DNA of 37,168 bases, from positions 1 to 37,168 of IMG/VR virus record IMGVR_UViG_3300017988_000012, one strand, 5' to 3'. The stretch comes from a virus. Lineage: Duplodnaviria > Caudoviricetes. A program made the position numbers and the translations under genes. The first letter of the stretch is position 1; each line of letters opens with the position of its first letter. Positions 2,386-36,638 of the stretch are shown piece by piece. The notes under the pieces are model-generated. The model saw nothing but the letters and a program-made list of their open reading frames with translations, had not been told where the DNA came from and did no database searches.

Positions 2386-3222
2386 ATGACTTCAACTGCA
2401 ATAGCAATTATTGAAAAACAAGGATGGGACACGAAGCTCATCGATTACATCAGGGAAAATGTTTTGCCAAATGTGACTGATGAAGAGCTCCTGTTCTACT
2501 TCACCATGCACAAAAAGCTTGGTCTCGATCCTTTTATGAAAAATATCTGGGTCATCAGATATGGAGGAAAAAACCAATATGTCACATCGATCAAAGCCTT
2601 GCGAACCTTAGCAGATAGGAGTGGAAGATTCTTCCCATCTTCGAAGAAGACAGAGTTTGTATACGATGACAAAGGAAATCTCATCAGCGCGACCAAATAC
2701 ATCTGTAAACTTACGCCAAATGGAATCTTGGCTGAAGGATGTTCTACAGCAATGTGGGATAGCTTCGCTAAAGATGCTAGTGGGAAGCTCAAAGGAAGCT
2801 GCTGGAAAACTCATCCTGAGCTGATGCTTGAGAAATGTGCAGAGGCAAGATGCTTGCGAGAAAACTTTCCAGGAGAATGTGGCGATCTCTATATCGCTGA
2901 AGAGTTTGGAGGAACGCAGCCTGCCGCAGCCGAGACTGTTGAAGCTACTGTTCTCTCTCAGCAAGAAATCAATGAGTTGCGAGCTCCCGAAGTTAGGAAG
3001 TTAGGAAGTGAAGAACTTCAGAAGTTAGGAAGTGAAGTAGCCAAGAAAATGATGGATGACAGAGAAGTGAAGTGCGTGATCATGAAAAATGAGATGACAG
3101 AATTTTTGTCAGAGTGGCAAGATAGGAAGCCGCTCTTCCCTACGTTGGATAAATATCTGACGAGTGACAAGAAGAGTTTGCTCGATGCTTACATACGGTG
3201 GCAGGGAAAACGCGCCGCATAG
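2386..3222 (+). CDS. bet: Bet/RecT-family single-strand annealing protein
   Basis: LGLDPFMKNIWVI...SIKALRTLADRSG...WKTHPELMLEKCAEARCLRENFP...LYIAEE; RBS AAGGAG. Confidence 0.85.
   Translation: MTSTAIAIIEKQGWDTKLIDYIRENVLPNVTDEELLFYFTMHKKLGLDPFMKNIWVIRYGGKNQYVTSIKALRTLADRSGRFFPSSKKTEFVYDDKGNLISATKYICKLTPNGILAEGCSTAMWDSFAKDASGKLKGSCWKTHPELMLEKCAEARCLRENFPGECGDLYIAEEFGGTQPAAAETVEATVLSQQEINELRAPEVRKLGSEELQKLGSEVAKKMMDDREVKCVIMKNEMTEFLSEWQDRKPLFPTLDKYLTSDKKSLLDAYIRWQGKRAA
2989..3036. repeat. 8-bp-period array 1 (6 units)
   Basis: gaagttag gaagttag gaagtgaa gaacttca gaagttag gaagtgaa. Confidence 0.75.
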
Positions 3223-6532: not shown

Positions 6533-7038
6533 TTTTGTCCATTTGCTTTCTCTTTTCTAGCTATTTGCCGAATTTCTTCTTTCTTTTGTTTCAATAATCT
6601 TTTCATCCATCCATTAGATGGCTTTTTTGGGATTGCATCACCATTGACAACAAAGACCTTCCCAACGATCTTATTTCTGGCAGGCTTGTCAGTCCCTTCA
6701 ACATGTGCCCAATAAGCATATGGCTCAAGATCTTCTTTCACCTTGATTTTGAGATAGAAATATTTGCCTGAATGTATTGGTTCTGATTCTTCGTCTAGAT
6801 TTTCAGGCGTACCGGGAATGAAATATGGATCATTAGGAACTTTTTCTTCGACGATGATCTCTGTTCCAACTGGCATGTAAAAACTTTCTACTGATAAAGA
6901 CGGAAGGCCTTCAGTACACCAATAAGGAGTTTTATATTCAAACTCGTCATCTTTCATTTCAATCTTTCCTGCCTTTTTTTCAGCTTTCTGAGTTCGTTTA
7001 GCATTGCGATGCCCTTTCTTTTTCCTCTCCTGATGCAT
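6529..7038 (-). CDS. hypothetical protein
   Basis: ATGA overlap with next gene; start uncertain (possibly internal MKDDEF). Confidence 0.6.
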   Translation of the reverse strand: MHQERKKKGHRNAKRTQKAEKKAGKIEMKDDEFEYKTPYWCTEGLPSLSVESFYMPVGTEIIVEEKVPNDPYFIPGTPENLDEESEPIHSGKYFYLKIKVKEDLEPYAYWAHVEGTDKPARNKIVGKVFVVNGDAIPKKPSNGWMKRLLKQKKEEIRQIARKEKANGQK

Positions 7039-7108
7039 GACTCGAACATGCGACCGATTGATTAACAGTCAATTGCTCTCCCAGCTGAGCTAATCAGGAT
7101 TGTTTTTT

Positions 7109-11633: not shown

Positions 11634-11845
11634 TATGTGATGTATGTGTGCAAATAGTCCTCAAGCAATTACAGGGCGATGCTGGCTGTCCAGTTGATGG
11701 TATGCTTCGCGTATGTTGCCATGATCGGCCGAAATGTGAGACAAAATTAATGCTTGATGCTATACATAAATTCACTATTCCAAATAGAAATGCAAAAAAT
11801 GATTATTCATGTCTCCAGGCGATACAGGATGTAGATGGAATATAA
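11630..11845 (+). CDS. small Cys-rich protein
   Basis: ATGA overlap with portal stop; 7 Cys including CxxC. Confidence 0.65.
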   Translation: MICDVCVQIVLKQLQGDAGCPVDGMLRVCCHDRPKCETKLMLDAIHKFTIPNRNAKNDYSCLQAIQDVDGI

Positions 11846-12002
11846 CACAATTCTAGTCTTGGATAGGAAGGGAAGGCAAATAATCCTCTATATCAAGGGA
11901 GATGAGCTGACGATTGAGAATATTGTCGATGTCGAAATCCTTGAATCTCCTGATATTCCTACATCTGAACAGCCTCTCAAAGTAATCTATAGCAACTTAT
12001 AG
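11835..12002 (+). CDS. hypothetical protein (55 aa)
   Basis: Not in track; MEYNTILVLDRKGRQIILYIKGDELTIENIVDVEILE... Confidence 0.55.
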   Translation: MEYNTILVLDRKGRQIILYIKGDELTIENIVDVEILESPDIPTSEQPLKVIYSNL

Positions 12003-14582: not shown

Positions 14583-16745
14583 ATGAGTATAACAACTACG
14601 TCGACCCTGCCGGCCCCTGTGCAGCAGTCGTTTTCGTTTAAGTTGCTCTCGGTTCCTGTGCCATACATGATCCACAAGATACCTGCAGAGCTAAAAGCAA
14701 TGCCACGCAATGGTGGTACGACCCTTGACTAAACTAGGGGTCATTAAATCTTCTCTGATAGACTTGAAAACCTTACCACGTTATGGTGAAGGCAACAAGG
14801 GGCAAGATATGGAAACAAACTGGGATTTATTGGAAAAAGATACAGATCTCTTGAATTATGCAATAATAAAAATGAGATCTGAGGGAATAGAACCAGAAAA
14901 ACTCAAAGATATTGTTGAATGGGTAAATTCCAAACCATATCCATATCCATATCAGCCTGAACGTAGCAAGCGAGAAGACTCCAGAAATGGAGATGCGGTG
15001 CTCTGAACATTGCAGAAATGCAGTGAGGAAAGTGCAATAGGCTTTCCCGCCTAGAAATAGGTAGTAACAAAATTGTAGAATGCGACGATACAATCCGCTC
15101 GCAACTGCGCCAGTGCCTCTTGGCAATAGTGGAGTGACACCTGCACCACAAAATCTGACCGCACTTAACATCGATGCCCAGATGGACTTCTACGGCACCT
15201 ATGTACTCTTGAATGAGCAGGTCACTTTACAAAATCAAGATCCTAGCTATATTATGGAGGCAGCTTGATAGATTTTGCTTTTCACGAATGAGACATTTAT
15301 GCTATAATAACTGGAGCACTAAACCAAAAGAAAACGCACAAGTTCTTTTAAATTTTTGCCAAAACTTTTCTCCTGTTAAACATAGACAAGCATCAGTTCC
15401 TAAAGAAGAACTTGACATTCGTGAAAATTTTTATCAAGAATTGATTCATTTAAATAAATATGGGATCTATAAATCTTCTCTGATTGACTTGGAAGCCCCA
15501 CGGGGTGACAGGGCCGAAGACGAAAGTCACGGTGAACGACTAAGTGAGAAGACCTCGAAAGAGGATGCGATAGTCTGAACAGCAGACGAAAGCTGCTGAG
15601 AGCGATCCGAAGAGGTTGCTCCGCCAACTATCTGGAATTTCCGGATAGTTGGTCACAAAAGTAACAGAATGGTATTAAACGAAGCTGCACAACGCTTAGG
15701 CGTGTCACTTCGTCAAACAGAAGATCAGCTGATGCGAGATATGCTTGCGTCTACTGCAACTTTTGTGAATTGTATTGGTGGATCTGATGGTGATAACCCA
15801 ACAGAAATCACCCGCAGTGACGTCGACTTTGTAGTCAGAACGCTGAGAGGAAACAATGCCTACAGCTATCTGTCAGGAGTCGAAGGAGAAAATCGTTTTG
15901 GAACAGCTCCAGTACGTGATGCGTTGACAAAATATGCGCATCTAAAATCTTGGGTAATTGACTTGGAACTCCTCGCGGCATAGGCTAAGGACAACAAGGG
16001 GCAAGCTATGGAATGGATAAATGTTTTTGATGCATTGCCAAAAATACATGAGGTAGTTTGGATATACTGGCGTGATCGAGAAGTCTTACTTGGTTGTAGG
16101 ATAAATGACGATTCAGAGCCACACGAAAACTGGTACTCATTTGATGATGACAAATGCAGATGGACATACTGGTGGCAAAAGGTTTCATCAGAAAATTTAG
16201 ATAAACCTTTTCCTCCATTAGGCAATACTTCCTCGCAGCCTGAACGACTAAATCCTGAGACTCCGAAAGGAGATGCGATAGTCTGAACTCTATGGCGACA
16301 TAGAGAGGGAGATCCGAAGAGGTTTCCCCGCCATCAAAAAAATGGTCTAAAGTAACAGAATGATTTTGGGTTAGCGCATACTAACTTAATTGGGCAACTC
16401 GACAATGTTAATGGGTTCATCCAGAAATGGAATTATCCCAATCAACAGTCCACGCTTGATGCAGAATGGGGAACTGTTGCCAACGTTAGATTCTTACTAT
16501 CTAGCATTGGCTCTGTAACGCCAAACGCATCATTGCTTGGAAATGATGTCTATAATTGTTTTGTCTGCGGCCGCGAATCTTTTGCAGCCATCGAACAAGA
16601 CGGCTATAGCGCACAATTTATTTATCGACCACCGATCTATGATGGGCCTCTGGCTCTTAATGCATCTGTGGGCTGGAAAATGGCAGAGGTGCCGCGTCTC
16701 CTCAATGACACATGGCTTCTAAATCTTAGAATGACATTGGCATAA
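14583..16745 (+). CDS. major capsid protein (N4 gp56-like), spliced: join(14583..14725,15076..15244,15672..15924,16363..16745), 315 aa
   Basis: 143+169+253+383=948 nt open frame: MSITTTSTLPAPVQQSF...PRNGGTTL|RMRRYNPL...QNQDP|VLNEAAQRLG...APVRDAY|FGLAHT...EWGTVANVRF...ASVGWK...LRMTLA. Confidence 0.9.
14726..15075 (+). mobile_element. group I intron 1 (350 nt)
   Basis: P1 GACCCUU/AGGGGUC with U14725.G14737; P3 TCTTCTC/GAGAAGA; P8 CTCC/GGAG; P9 GAAA loop; terminal G15075. Confidence 0.88.
14809..15006 (+). CDS. intron-1-encoded small ORF (65 aa), unknown function
   Basis: ATG after AAGGGGCAAGAT; METNWDLLEKDTDLLNYAIIKMRSEG...GDAVL*. Confidence 0.5.
   Translation: METNWDLLEKDTDLLNYAIIKMRSEGIEPEKLKDIVEWVNSKPYPYPYQPERSKREDSRNGDAVL
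15245..15671 (+). mobile_element. group I intron 2 (427 nt)
   Basis: Exon ends in U15244 (P1 imperfect); P3 TCTTCTC/GAGAAGA; P7 GACTA/TAGTC; P8 CCTC-GAAA-GAGG; terminal G15671. Confidence 0.88.
15285..15578 (+). pseudogene. probable LAGLIDADG homing endonuclease remnant in intron 2
   Basis: KENAQVLLNFC...IRENFYQELIHLNKYG resembles the C-terminal helices of phage LAGLIDADG proteins; no catalytic motif left; 5' boundary approximate. Confidence 0.45.
15925..16362 (+). mobile_element. group I intron 3 (438 nt)
   Basis: P1 GAUGCGU/GCGCAUC with U15924.G15936; P10 CAAAAU/AUUUUG; P3 TCTTGGG/CCTGAGA; P7 GACTA/TAGTC; terminal G16362. Confidence 0.92.
16008..16286 (+). CDS. intron-3-encoded DUF551-like protein (92 aa)
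   Basis: MEWINVFDALP...VWIY...TYW...PFPP follows the DUF551-type pattern. Confidence 0.6.
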   Translation: MEWINVFDALPKIHEVVWIYWRDREVLLGCRINDDSEPHENWYSFDDDKCRWTYWWQKVSSENLDKPFPPLGNTSSQPERLNPETPKGDAIV

Positions 16746-27624: not shown

Positions 27625-27867
27625 TTATTTCTCCTCCTTTAGCTTCTTTTTTTCTTCCAATGCACAAAGTCTGCCGTGGAAATCTTTGATCTCGTCCTTA
27701 ATAGCAATAATTATTGCTAACATTGAATTATGATCGTTCTGAATTTTCATATCTGCTGTCTGACGATCGCTTTGAATTTTTGCTTCAATAGCTTTCAGAT
27801 CACTTCTTCCTATTAAGAAAAAACCAGCCATTGCAAAAGTAAAGACGATAAGTTGTGTCCAGTCCAT
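27625..27867 (-). CDS. TM + coiled-coil DFHGRLC paralog 2
   Basis: EIKDFHGRLCALEEKKK. Confidence 0.8.
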   Translation of the reverse strand: MDWTQLIVFTFAMAGFFLIGRSDLKAIEAKIQSDRQTADMKIQNDHNSMLAIIIAIKDEIKDFHGRLCALEEKKKLKEEK

Positions 27868-27868
27868 G

Positions 27869-28087
27869 TTATTTCTCCTCCGCGAACTTTTTTCTTTCCT
27901 CTATGGCACATAACCTCCCGTGAAAATCTTTTATCTCAGCGTAAGTCTCTTGATGCATTGACGACAGTAGCTCTTCTACTCGTCTGTTGTCTGCTCGTCC
28001 TTCTGACCTAGACCAAAAGAACATGCCACATATAGTTACCATAATCACTACAAGCTCTAGAACTTGAACCTTGATTTCATCTTTCAT
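27869..28087 (-). CDS. TM + coiled-coil DFHGRLC paralog 1
   Basis: EIKDFHGRLCAIEERKK. Confidence 0.8.
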   Translation of the reverse strand: MKDEIKVQVLELVVIMVTICGMFFWSRSEGRADNRRVEELLSSMHQETYAEIKDFHGRLCAIEERKKFAEEK

Positions 28088-34700: not shown

Positions 34701-34871
34701 ATGGAAATTCCAAAAATTAGTTACTTATTGACTTTTGTATTCTTGATGGTGTGTGTTTTATTGATTTGCTTTGTTTTTTATATTGGATTAATTGGAGAAA
34801 AAGAAGCAAAGAATGAGAGTAATTTAAAACACTTACAAGAACTTAGCGTTAGCATCCCAATGCATAGCTAG
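34701..34871 (+). CDS. small membrane protein (56 aa)
   Basis: Not in track; RBS AGGAG; one N-terminal TM. Confidence 0.65.
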   Translation: MEIPKISYLLTFVFLMVCVLLICFVFYIGLIGEKEAKNESNLKHLQELSVSIPMHS

Positions 34872-35170
34872 TATCCAAAACCTCCTGGCACATCTCTGAA
34901 TGGAGCTGGGAGGTTGTTTCCTCCCATTGCCTCTAGATATAATCTATCAAGGTCCTGGGCGGACATCCTGGACATTTCTTTTCCAAAAAAATGTGTATAG
35001 ATAGCGTAGCGAAGAGCATCGCAGTTCTTGACGATGACGCCATTCGCTATAAAATTTCCATTGACTTTTGTGGCTAAGCAATAAACATCTTCATTGCCTT
35101 TTTTTCTTATTCCTCGTATCCCAACGAGCTTTGGCTGCGCATGATTTGGAACAATTTGTTGTATGAGCAT
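34868..35170 (-). CDS. terL: intein C-half fused to the TerL C-terminal extein
   Basis: EDVYCLATKVNGNFIANGVIVKN|CDALRYAIYT; ATG 35170 preceded by AGGA. Confidence 0.85.
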   Translation of the reverse strand: MLIQQIVPNHAQPKLVGIRGIRKKGNEDVYCLATKVNGNFIANGVIVKNCDALRYAIYTHFFGKEMSRMSAQDLDRLYLEAMGGNNLPAPFRDVPGGFGY

Positions 35171-35507
35171 ATTTATTTTTCCTAAACTTTTTTCCACAAT
35201 TCATTGAAGTGTTGATTTTCCATGTTAACACCATATCTTTTAGCGTCAAGTCATGGAGCATTTTATATCCTCTTTCTGTATAAATCAAGTGGTCGCCTGT
35301 AGCACAAAGCAATGTTCCGTCATCTAATTCAAGCTCATATATTTCAGCGTTTTTTCTAGTCAATGAAGGATTACTAAAAAGATCCTCCACAATACATTGT
35401 GAAGCCATATCTAAATTATATATTCGTCCAGATTTCTTTTGCTTTGCAAGCTCTTCGATCGTGATATTTCCCTCTGGAGTAGATATAATTGTCGACGCAA
35501 CAACGCA
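35024..35507 (-). mobile_element. split/frame-disrupted intein in TerL
   Basis: Block A CVVASTIISTPEG (Cys1 codon 35507), block B ATGDHLIYT, blocks F/G in the +1 frame ending at Asn 35024. Confidence 0.85.
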
Positions 35508-36638
35508 AGCATGATCACGATCTTTCAAAGGCTTGTCTTCCCCTGTCTTTTGGCATTTCGGATCCCAAACATATCCCTGTACTTCTTTTATCAATGCCTC
35601 GCATTTCCTGCAGATCTTGAGAGTCCCATTAGACATAAATTTGGAGACCAATCGTATCCCGTCCACTACTTCATTCTCTGCTTCAAATAAATTATGTATC
35701 CCAGATCTTCCAAGCTCTAGCTTGAATGAAGCCGCTGAAGGATCAATGTAGATGGCTTTGATTGCCTTATTTTCTATAAATCTTTTGAGATCATCTGCAT
35801 ATTCTGAATCTGTTTTCTGTCTTTGTTTTATCTTACTGTCCCAGTAATAGACATCCTCCACCCACATATTTGGATATCTGGACCTGTTTATCCCTATTAA
35901 GACAAATGAGCATGGATTGGTCGTCCCATAATCTACTCCCACAATGTAGAACTCTGCTGTCCCCGGAGGAAAATCGATGACATGGATGGAAGTATCAAAG
36001 AAATCGTAGATAGCTCCCTCTGCCTGGACCCAGCGTCCTTCTATGAATCTTTGGAACCAGATCCCCTTGTATTGTCGCTTGAGATAATCAGCCTCATCTT
36101 TTGTGAGTTCAGGGTTATCATCGAGAGTGAATTTCCAGCTCTTCACATCAGGATTATCAGTGAGAAAATCCTTCTTGAGCCAATGGTAGGGACTGTCAGG
36201 ATTGGTAGTAGCGAAGATTCTCGCTCCTTTCATAGCGCATCTAGAAATGAGCATCCTGAAGACCGACTCTGGGATGATAGTAGCTTCGTCTACATATGCT
36301 CCAGAAAATGTAGGTCCTCGAATCTTTGCCTCAGCTCTCTCGTCATCTGCTCCAATGATATGAATGGTTTTCCTGAAAACCATCATTTCTCTCTTCCCAG
36401 AATAGTACTTGACATCACTGCCAATCATCTTGGTGAGCTGTGGAAGGAGATTTCGTTTGAAGGAATCATATGTCCTTGTGATGATGCAATATTCGCCCTC
36501 AGGACCATATGTGAGCTCTTTTAGCCATCGCCATAGACTTATGTATGTCTTTCCAGAACGGACAGCTCCTTCCCATATATTAATTCTCGCATCAGAATCA
36601 TGTAAGGAAAAGAGCTGTTTATCTGAAAGAGACGACAT
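35091..36638 (-). CDS. terL: terminase large subunit (PBSX-like), residues 1-377, fused to intein N-half
   Basis: Walker A GAVRSGKT, Walker B AYVDEA, TTNPDSPYHWLK, GVDYGTTNP, DPSAASF, DRDHA|C. Confidence 0.92.
   Translation of the reverse strand: MSSLSDKQLFSLHDSDARINIWEGAVRSGKTYISLWRWLKELTYGPEGEYCIITRTYDSFKRNLLPQLTKMIGSDVKYYSGKREMMVFRKTIHIIGADDERAEAKIRGPTFSGAYVDEATIIPESVFRMLISRCAMKGARIFATTNPDSPYHWLKKDFLTDNPDVKSWKFTLDDNPELTKDEADYLKRQYKGIWFQRFIEGRWVQAEGAIYDFFDTSIHVIDFPPGTAEFYIVGVDYGTTNPCSFVLIGINRSRYPNMWVEDVYYWDSKIKQRQKTDSEYADDLKRFIENKAIKAIYIDPSAASFKLELGRSGIHNLFEAENEVVDGIRLVSKFMSNGTLKICRKCEALIKEVQGYVWDPKCQKTGEDKPLKDRDHACVVASTIISTPEGNITIEELAKQKKSGRIYNLDMASQCIVEDLFSNPSLTRKNAEIYELELDDGTLLCATGDHLIYTERGYKMLHDLTLKDMVLTWKINTSMNCGKKFRKNKYAHTTNCSKSCAAKARWDTRNKKKRQ

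Follow-up and report, generated by a model that had tools for sequence, protein, structure and literature searches.

The capsid gene and its phage

The window analysed here is an entire virus record of 37,168 nucleotides (positions 1 to 37,168). It encodes a P22-like portal and, in pieces, a major head protein, and further genes recognized by Pfam are a terminase, RecT, a PD-(D/E)XK nuclease and RusA. The features of the capsid gene, together with the recombinase, are as follows.

2386-3222 (+): RecT-family recombinase (Pfam PF03837, E 5.5e-18)
14583-16745 (+): major capsid gene, whole, with three group I introns and four exons
14583-14725 (+): capsid exon 1 (intron-less relatives; 3' junction in RNA contig)
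14726-15075 (+): group I intron 1, 350 nt (spliced in vivo; ends set by intron-less relatives)
14797-14802 (+): AAGGGG, likely Shine–Dalgarno sequence of intron 1, in the P4 3' strand/P6 5' strand
14809-15006 (+): cargo ORF 1, 65 aa (P6a-loop insert 14806-14954 plus core-encoded tail)
15076-15244 (+): capsid exon 2 (comparison with intron-less relatives)
15245-15671 (+): group I intron 2, 427 nt (ends set by intron-less relatives)
15249-15473 (+): C-terminal LAGLIDADG homing endonuclease remnant in the P1 loop of intron 2 (homology to same-site ORFs; Pfam on the ORF of locus L025)
15672-15924 (+): capsid exon 3 (intron-less relatives; RNA contig)
15925-16362 (+): group I intron 3, 438 nt (spliced in vivo; ends set by intron-less relatives)
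15996-16001 (+): AAGGGG, likely Shine–Dalgarno sequence of intron 3 (core motif)
16008-16286 (+): cargo ORF 3, 92 aa (whole DUF551-like gene of about 70 aa, P6a insert 16005-16237, plus core-encoded tail)
16363-16745 (+): capsid exon 4 (capsid homology; RNA contig)

Capsid relatives were found in four genome bins, namely Simkaniaceae, Parachlamydia, Legionellales and Methanomicrobiales, from which we make the weak guess that the phage host is an environmental chlamydia. The capsids of annotated phages were just 23-26% identical (among 15 of the 25 records listed). Elsewhere in the window, the terminase large subunit (34868-36638, −) contains an intein with its N- and C-parts in two reading frames (Pfam Intein_splicing, a weak match), and a tRNA gene with anticodon GUU, read from the Rfam alignment, lies at 7027-7099 (−).

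Intron boundaries, splicing and structure

A set of 80 capsid loci includes intron-less relatives, and alignment with these set the intron ends; together, the loci and the window contain 66 insertions, of which 47 are distinct, and the 19 positions called for them include two that are poorly resolved. In the metatranscriptome run X3, contigs joined 14725 to 15076 and 15924 to 16363 with 0 other letters at the joins, each seen in one contig per intron at a depth of 2-3.5 in this single run, whose contigs cover exon parts and not intron interiors. The DNA runs X1 and X2, from which the window itself may derive, span the capsid stretch unspliced with 0 differences, and the splice joins were absent from X1, X2 and X5. 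Runs X4 and X5 contain small shares only and were set aside as evidence of habitat. Introns 1 and 3 are excised precisely from RNA in vivo, and splicing is, for us, the practically certain step of the explanation developed below. For intron 2, one RNA contig begins at 15672 and no contig bridges the exons across the intron.

At all three 5' splice sites P1 folds with the U.G pair (intron 2 was folded with its loop shortened), and all three introns end in a terminal G. Across 303 introns, 95% of the cells of the P3 pseudoknot were paired over 6 pairs, with several pair types, against a shuffled maximum of 73%. The guanosine site in P7 was G-C in 282/282 introns with covarying flanking pairs, a partly circular result in that the strands were located by pattern; similarly, P4 and P6, the latter in three variants, were paired in all introns, both strands having been part of the search patterns. 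Rfam gave no intron match in the window, neither at the gathering score nor at E up to 10, as might be expected of an assembly or annotation artefact with no introns at all; however, with two DNA runs across the stretch free of differences, exons joined exactly in RNA contigs and P3 pairing far above that of shuffled sequences, such an artefact is close to impossible. The elements are group I introns by structure and by splicing in vivo, and protein-free self-splicing is putative.

Intron 1 was 88% identical over 211 aligned nt to a cargo-less intron at the same site (locus L036). Its P7 (14963-14968/14999-15003) has an extra bulged base, GUAGCA/UGCUC, a type common to 59/129 cargo introns. 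Most introns close with a conserved AAGTAACAGAATG-like tail, and the terminal AUG of intron 2 (15669-15671) is in frame with exon 3.

Small genes in introns 1 and 3

The window has just two copies of the sequence CAAGGGGCAAG, at 14796 and 15995, each followed by a spacer (AT in intron 1, CT in intron 3) and then by ATGGAA, at 14809 and 16008, respectively. This shared start layout had been described in a first-pass annotation made from the sequence, and its coordinates were confirmed, as were those of the ORF ends GDAVL* (15006), EDAIV* (15578) and GDAIV* (16286) and of the GAC-GAAA-GTC hairpin of intron 2 (about 15519-15528).

The module of cargo 1 comprises about 48 aa, modelled as three helices. 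Five relatives with 42-60% identity were found, four of which end just past the shared part, while one (P0033) reads on through QPERSKRED into another module. These relatives lack DNA context, and no viral locus was found for them; a word search with cargo 1 recovered only itself, an atlas look-up was blank, and its fold had no match among viral folds at E 0.001.

Cargo 3 has 28 relatives with 52-71% identity over the first 70 or so residues, and matches complete free-standing DUF551-like genes from residue one. In 9/9 viral loci (8 contigs), the relatives are free-standing with no intron motifs nearby, and some adjoin other DUF551-like genes. The resemblance of the intron 3 product to DUF551 proteins, noticed in the first-pass annotation, was backed by both families and folds: 19/29 members of the cargo 3 family matched DUF551 (PF04448) in Pfam at E up to 0.1 (best 6.9e-05; the window protein itself had no match), and the top viral fold matches of the cargo 3 model (pLDDT 80.8) were DUF551 proteins (best E 2e-4). 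By these models, cargo 3 shares the DUF551 fold; against the PDB, only weak Tudor-like rows were obtained, none at E 0.001. One relative (P0027) runs on as QPERSKREDS into a further module, and is therefore likely to be a second intron-borne copy. Neither window cargo ORF had a significant match in Pfam or PHROGs, and PADLOC gave 0 matches for seven cargo ORFs. The earlier remark that neither cargo shows nuclease motifs agrees with Pfam, which gave 0 nuclease matches, and with the predicted folds of both ORFs, which had no nuclease match.

The ORF of intron 2 is of another kind. It begins out of frame in exon 2, and its frame runs through the core to 15578. Aligned with the full LAGLIDADG ORFs of introns at this site, it is about 42-55% identical over about 49 aa; the homology is to the LAGLIDADG C-terminus only, and the motifs are absent. 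The first-pass annotation had listed all three intron ORFs together by their passage through the core to one TGA; that of intron 2 is a different case, being what is left of a P1-loop endonuclease gene. Where such genes are complete at this site (L025, L046 and L048), they too pass through the core in the frame that reads QPER. A strong extended −10 promoter-like site lies within the remnant (15279-15308, +).

One start and one frame across the intron family

For the main set, loci were picked by capsid homology or core pattern with ATG disregarded. This set held 124 distinct introns with P6=GGGC, of which 47, including the two of the window, carried a P6a insert of 60-400 nt; all stretches with such cores are estimated at about 730 viral and 1300 metagenome ones. 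An ATG lay 1-5 nt into P6a, just past the core AAGGGG, in 43/47 inserts (shuffle expectation 5.1). The inserts were open in 43/47 cases, and 42/43 open frames entered the core as QPER (binomial against 1/3, P 3e-19), with a shuffle expectation of 0.4 of 47 for inserts open in this frame. A metagenome sample, some contigs of which repeat the viral set, gave 31/33 for the ATG rule and 30/31 for the QPER frame. Over all loci, 175 inserts comprised 164 in the QPER frame, 3 in other frames, 6 with their own stop and 2 without a start; this total adds ATG-selected searches and is unbiased for the frame only, and matches whose 3' core was missing from the fetched DNA (53/368) had been dropped. Over the first 28 nt of the core or more, frame 1 was open in 52/129 introns, and was used by 0/52.

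The stop is less regular. That all intron ORFs share the core TGA, as the first-pass annotation had it, fails as a family rule: the core stop after P7 ends 17/42 ORFs of the main set and 45/156 untruncated ORFs over all loci. The conserved feature, as read from these sequences, is the frame through the core and not the stop. An idea that the DAIV/DAVL ends are C-terminal degradation tags was dropped because the ORF ends vary. A requirement that the stop lie one ribosome footprint past P6 was likewise rejected as the sole cause, given the unused open frame 1 and large inserts that can stop at +3.

The 164 cargo ORFs in the QPER frame fell into 128 blastp families, and Pfam, applied to 127 of them, gave three DUF551 matches and 0 nuclease matches at E 0.001. 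Of 129 cargo introns, 120 are located in this phage group's capsid region. Among the findings that the first-pass annotation had named as speaking against it were random frames among homologs and cargo made of decayed endonuclease fragments; the frame counts of the three samples and the nuclease-free cargo show neither. On a tree of 142 cores (P6 and both loops excluded), the cargo state changed 35 times, with at least 20 changes forced by strong branches, although the tree is built on 175 columns with rough support and an unsettled bootstrap. A single origin of the cargo is not supported by this tree.

Several individual arrangements were also observed. A free-standing gene in the window (11835-12002, +) was 57% identical over 35 aa to the P6a cargo of two other phages (L545 and L577), which is a truncated copy of the free gene (35-37 of 55 aa). 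By eye, L001 (2709-3359) has two tandem ORFs in one P6a loop and L003 (3373-3693) a short ORF in a P9-region loop. L034 (3399-3865) has a P6a-loop ORF with its own stop, which two small membrane-type genes of the window (27625-28087, −) resemble, by eye only.

A second slot in the P8 loop

Inserts in the P8 loop were present in 46/119 cargo introns versus 3/153 cargo-less introns (P 4e-16). They were open in the read-through frame in 42/46 cases (5.5 expected), and in 65/71 of a larger set. The P8 modules of the cargo introns listed have no start codon at their beginning, while both cargo-less GGGC introns with a P8 insert have their own ATG. For one P8 module, a search limited to shorter proteins turned up no free-standing relative.

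Selection was estimated by dN/dS, which the first-pass annotation had proposed, and all values lay below 1, with the reservation that divergence within the pairs may partly predate capture: 0.17 for P8 modules (7 pairs), 0.42 for P6a cargo in 7 pairs chosen by DNA identity and 0.25 in 12 pairs chosen by protein identity, a choice that biases the value low. In one P8 example, 7 of 11.7 synonymous sites were changed versus 3 of 51.3 replacement sites. Since the P8 modules are startless, open and low in dN/dS, we predict that translation passes through P6, P7 and P3. In 6/7 of the P8 pairs, the modules stood beside unrelated P6a genes, which suggests that modules reassort across the conserved core. 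The P6a cargo of L497 resembles the P8-loop module of L201 (45% over 29 aa, E 4e-4), and modules may therefore also move between loops.

A likely ribosome-binding site in the core

The AAGGGG motif paired with the standard anti-Shine–Dalgarno motif at −6.6 kcal/mol, which is mid-range among this phage's own starts. Among capsid introns, inserts of 60-400 nt were present in 50/81 with P6=GGGC versus 1/46 with GCGC/GCGG (P 1e-12). However, GCGG cores pair with the anti-Shine–Dalgarno motif as well as GGGC cores do (−6.4/−6.7 versus −6.6 kcal/mol), so the Shine–Dalgarno contrast between the two is not clean; L592 is a GCGG intron with a 148-nt insert. In the fold models, the GGG of the site is largely free while the RNA is nascent (0.8-0.95 unpaired) and becomes largely paired once the intron is complete, with the hiding of the site clear for intron 1 and partial for intron 3. 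The AUG overlaps the P6a helix in 77/129 introns. In L407, where P6 is of a different type, the DUF551-like cargo comes with an AGGA site and a stop of its own.

The core AAGGGG is thus likely to act as the Shine–Dalgarno sequence, and a ribosome site supplied by the core appears probable. Translation of the cargo itself is strongly implied by the sequences, and we hold it to be very probable.

Why the cargo would be translated, and why in one frame

Large inserts shed further light on the frame. In antisense LAGLIDADG inserts, the mRNA strand was at least 92% open in 11/13 cases, compared with a null mean of 0.4-0.5 under synonymous redraws. The antisense P6a genes with a near stop-free mRNA strand are those of L023, L034, L063, L104, L107, L237, L257, L280, L605, L619 and L642. 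Large inserts leave in frame 0 in 4/13 open cases, and the QPER frame is therefore not needed for splicing. That antisense inserts keep the mRNA strand open indicates that ribosome coverage may be part of what is selected, and suggests that the capsid message in general has to be covered by ribosomes.

Our preferred reading, to which we give a probability of roughly 0.6, is that the introns splice from the capsid mRNA while the P6a loop holds small accessory genes, which likely start from a Shine–Dalgarno-like AAGGGG and an AUG within the core helices and are read in a fixed frame through the core, often into a P8 module. This extends the main proposal of the first-pass annotation, an exchange of accessory genes other than endonucleases that take their start from the core, which the frames, the nature of the cargo, the free-standing relatives and the dN/dS values all support. 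Mechanistically, ribosomes would bind the RNA while it is still being made, when P6a and P6 do not yet have their 3' strands, and later folding would hide the ribosome site, letting splicing follow. An insert in the capsid message may be tolerated only under ribosome cover, since naked RNA probably invites Rho termination or decay. Recombination in conserved core segments, probably by the phage RecT, which we infer as a candidate agent of module capture and shuffling, would swap P6a and P8 modules, and compatibility with startless P8 modules under such exchange would keep the frame fixed, the simplest reason that we can offer. The peptides would be useful late accessory proteins, and their selection while in the intron seems rather probable.

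A more far-reaching version, which we consider possible but tentative, is a ribozyme-based combinatorial gene assembly, in which the core would give the ribosome site, start codon, peptide linker and recombination homology for shuffled fusions of P6a and P8 modules. If true, new small fusion proteins would be made from the strongest late message of the phage, with splicing as the off switch.

Three other explanations of the cargo were weighed against this reading. The passengers may serve ribosome coverage only, their translation protecting the capsid message or aiding intron refolding with the peptides inert. The open antisense endonuclease inserts, whose peptide is probably meaningless, fit this idea, as do the extreme variety of the cargo (128 families of 164) and the existence of at least one cargo that is a shortened version of a free-standing gene; but coverage alone cannot account for the open alternative frame that is left unused (0/52), and startless P8 modules with shared junctions and a dN/dS of 0.17 are hard to see as inert, which makes this explanation unlikely. 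Expression of the cargo from its own internal promoter, with a −35 in the P4 5' strand and a −10 in the extended P5 loop, would yield a transcript without the masking strand, and is comparable to the late expression of T4 I-TevI. Both window introns indeed read TWGACT-17 nt-TAnnnT, the hexamer pair was found in 16/77 cargo versus 3/74 cargo-less capsid introns (P 0.003), and a long P5 in 61/77 versus 19/74. However, the pair is missing from 61/77 cargo introns, it matches the consensus at 8/12 positions only, below the scan threshold, and its TAA doubles as a hairpin loop common to cargo-less introns. With the pair confined to 16/77 cargo introns, an internal promoter was rejected as a general rule, and we regard this route, as proposed from sequence analysis, as distinctly improbable. 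That cargo accompanies a longer P5 is noted as an observation in its own right.

The third explanation is neutral creep of decayed homing-endonuclease fragments into the core. The ORF of intron 2 is such a remnant, and the full P1-loop LAGLIDADG genes there traverse the core in the QPER frame, which may be why that frame became open; an old P1-loop endonuclease read-through may have set it first. For the P6a cargo, by contrast, core creep is largely refuted by the 0 nuclease matches in 127 ORFs and by the match of cargo 3 to whole free-standing DUF551-like genes. Creep also predicts extensions that vary with each invasion (Edgell, Chalamcharla and Belfort 2011, PMC3073962, in the portion available), not one start and one frame, and as an explanation of the cargo it is very improbable.

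Significance and comparison with known systems

ORFs of phage group I introns are usually taken as homing nucleases, and translation within the core is taken as a hazard. In the family described here, which is large and escapes Rfam, more than 100 small genes with no relation to one another occupy a single loop, in one frame through the catalytic core, and the introns are nonetheless spliced. Should the cassette reading prove right, introns with ORFs would gain a means of persisting that needs no nuclease, phages would have a concealed reserve of small accessory proteins as well as a route to new fusions, and the introns would offer a compact natural test of the competition between ribosomes and ribozyme folding on one RNA. 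Integron gene cassettes and phage morons are likewise exchangeable small accessory genes on a fixed expression platform, but the platform here is a ribozyme and the modules fuse in frame, so that the likeness is an analogy only.

By title and the beginning of the abstract, the literature searched held no description of such small-gene cargo (supplementary intron catalogues, which could hold these introns, were outside this scope), and two-slot, fixed-frame small-gene cargo appears to be undescribed there. The group I intron database, as presented in the available part of its description, considers only ORFs of at least 120 aa (PMC11835236), and cargo this small would therefore mostly be missed. 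In a review (PMC3984707, in the part available), the ORFs found in bacterial introns are regarded as homing nucleases.

Phage introns similar to those studied here are known. In mycobacteriophage LittleE, too, the major capsid gene contains an intron spliced during infection, with a reverse-strand LAGLIDADG-like gene as in the relatives analysed here; the available text of that report (Pope et al. 2013, PMC3706429) describes no small sense-strand cargo. Bastillevirinae and Jug phages also have many introns, empty ones of about 200 nt in Jug, with splicing supported by RNA reads, but the intron-encoded proteins reported in the accessible portions of these studies are nucleases, unlike the cargo here (PMC11878797, PMC12880540).

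ORFs unrelated to homing or splicing, as found here, occur in organellar introns and IStrons. According to the accessible part of one review (PMC3073962), these include an ORF in the Neurospora rnl intron, 15 genes in P8 of the Discosoma ND5 intron, and the transposases of clostridial IStrons. These are fixed housekeeping genes or transposases, and repeated refilling, a common start or reassortment between two loops is not described for them in that part.

The closest parallel is the T4 td intron, in which the I-TevI ORF lies in the P6 loop and its 3' end forms P6a, P6 and P7 (Edgell, Chalamcharla and Belfort 2011, PMC3073962, from the portion available). Both systems have a P6-loop ORF that overlaps the core and a ribosome site hidden by RNA structure, here in the fold model. 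I-TevI, however, is a homing nuclease, and a hairpin within the loop contains its ribosome site (PMC3073962, same portion), whereas the cargo described here is non-nuclease and very diverse, starts from the core helices and links two loops in one frame.
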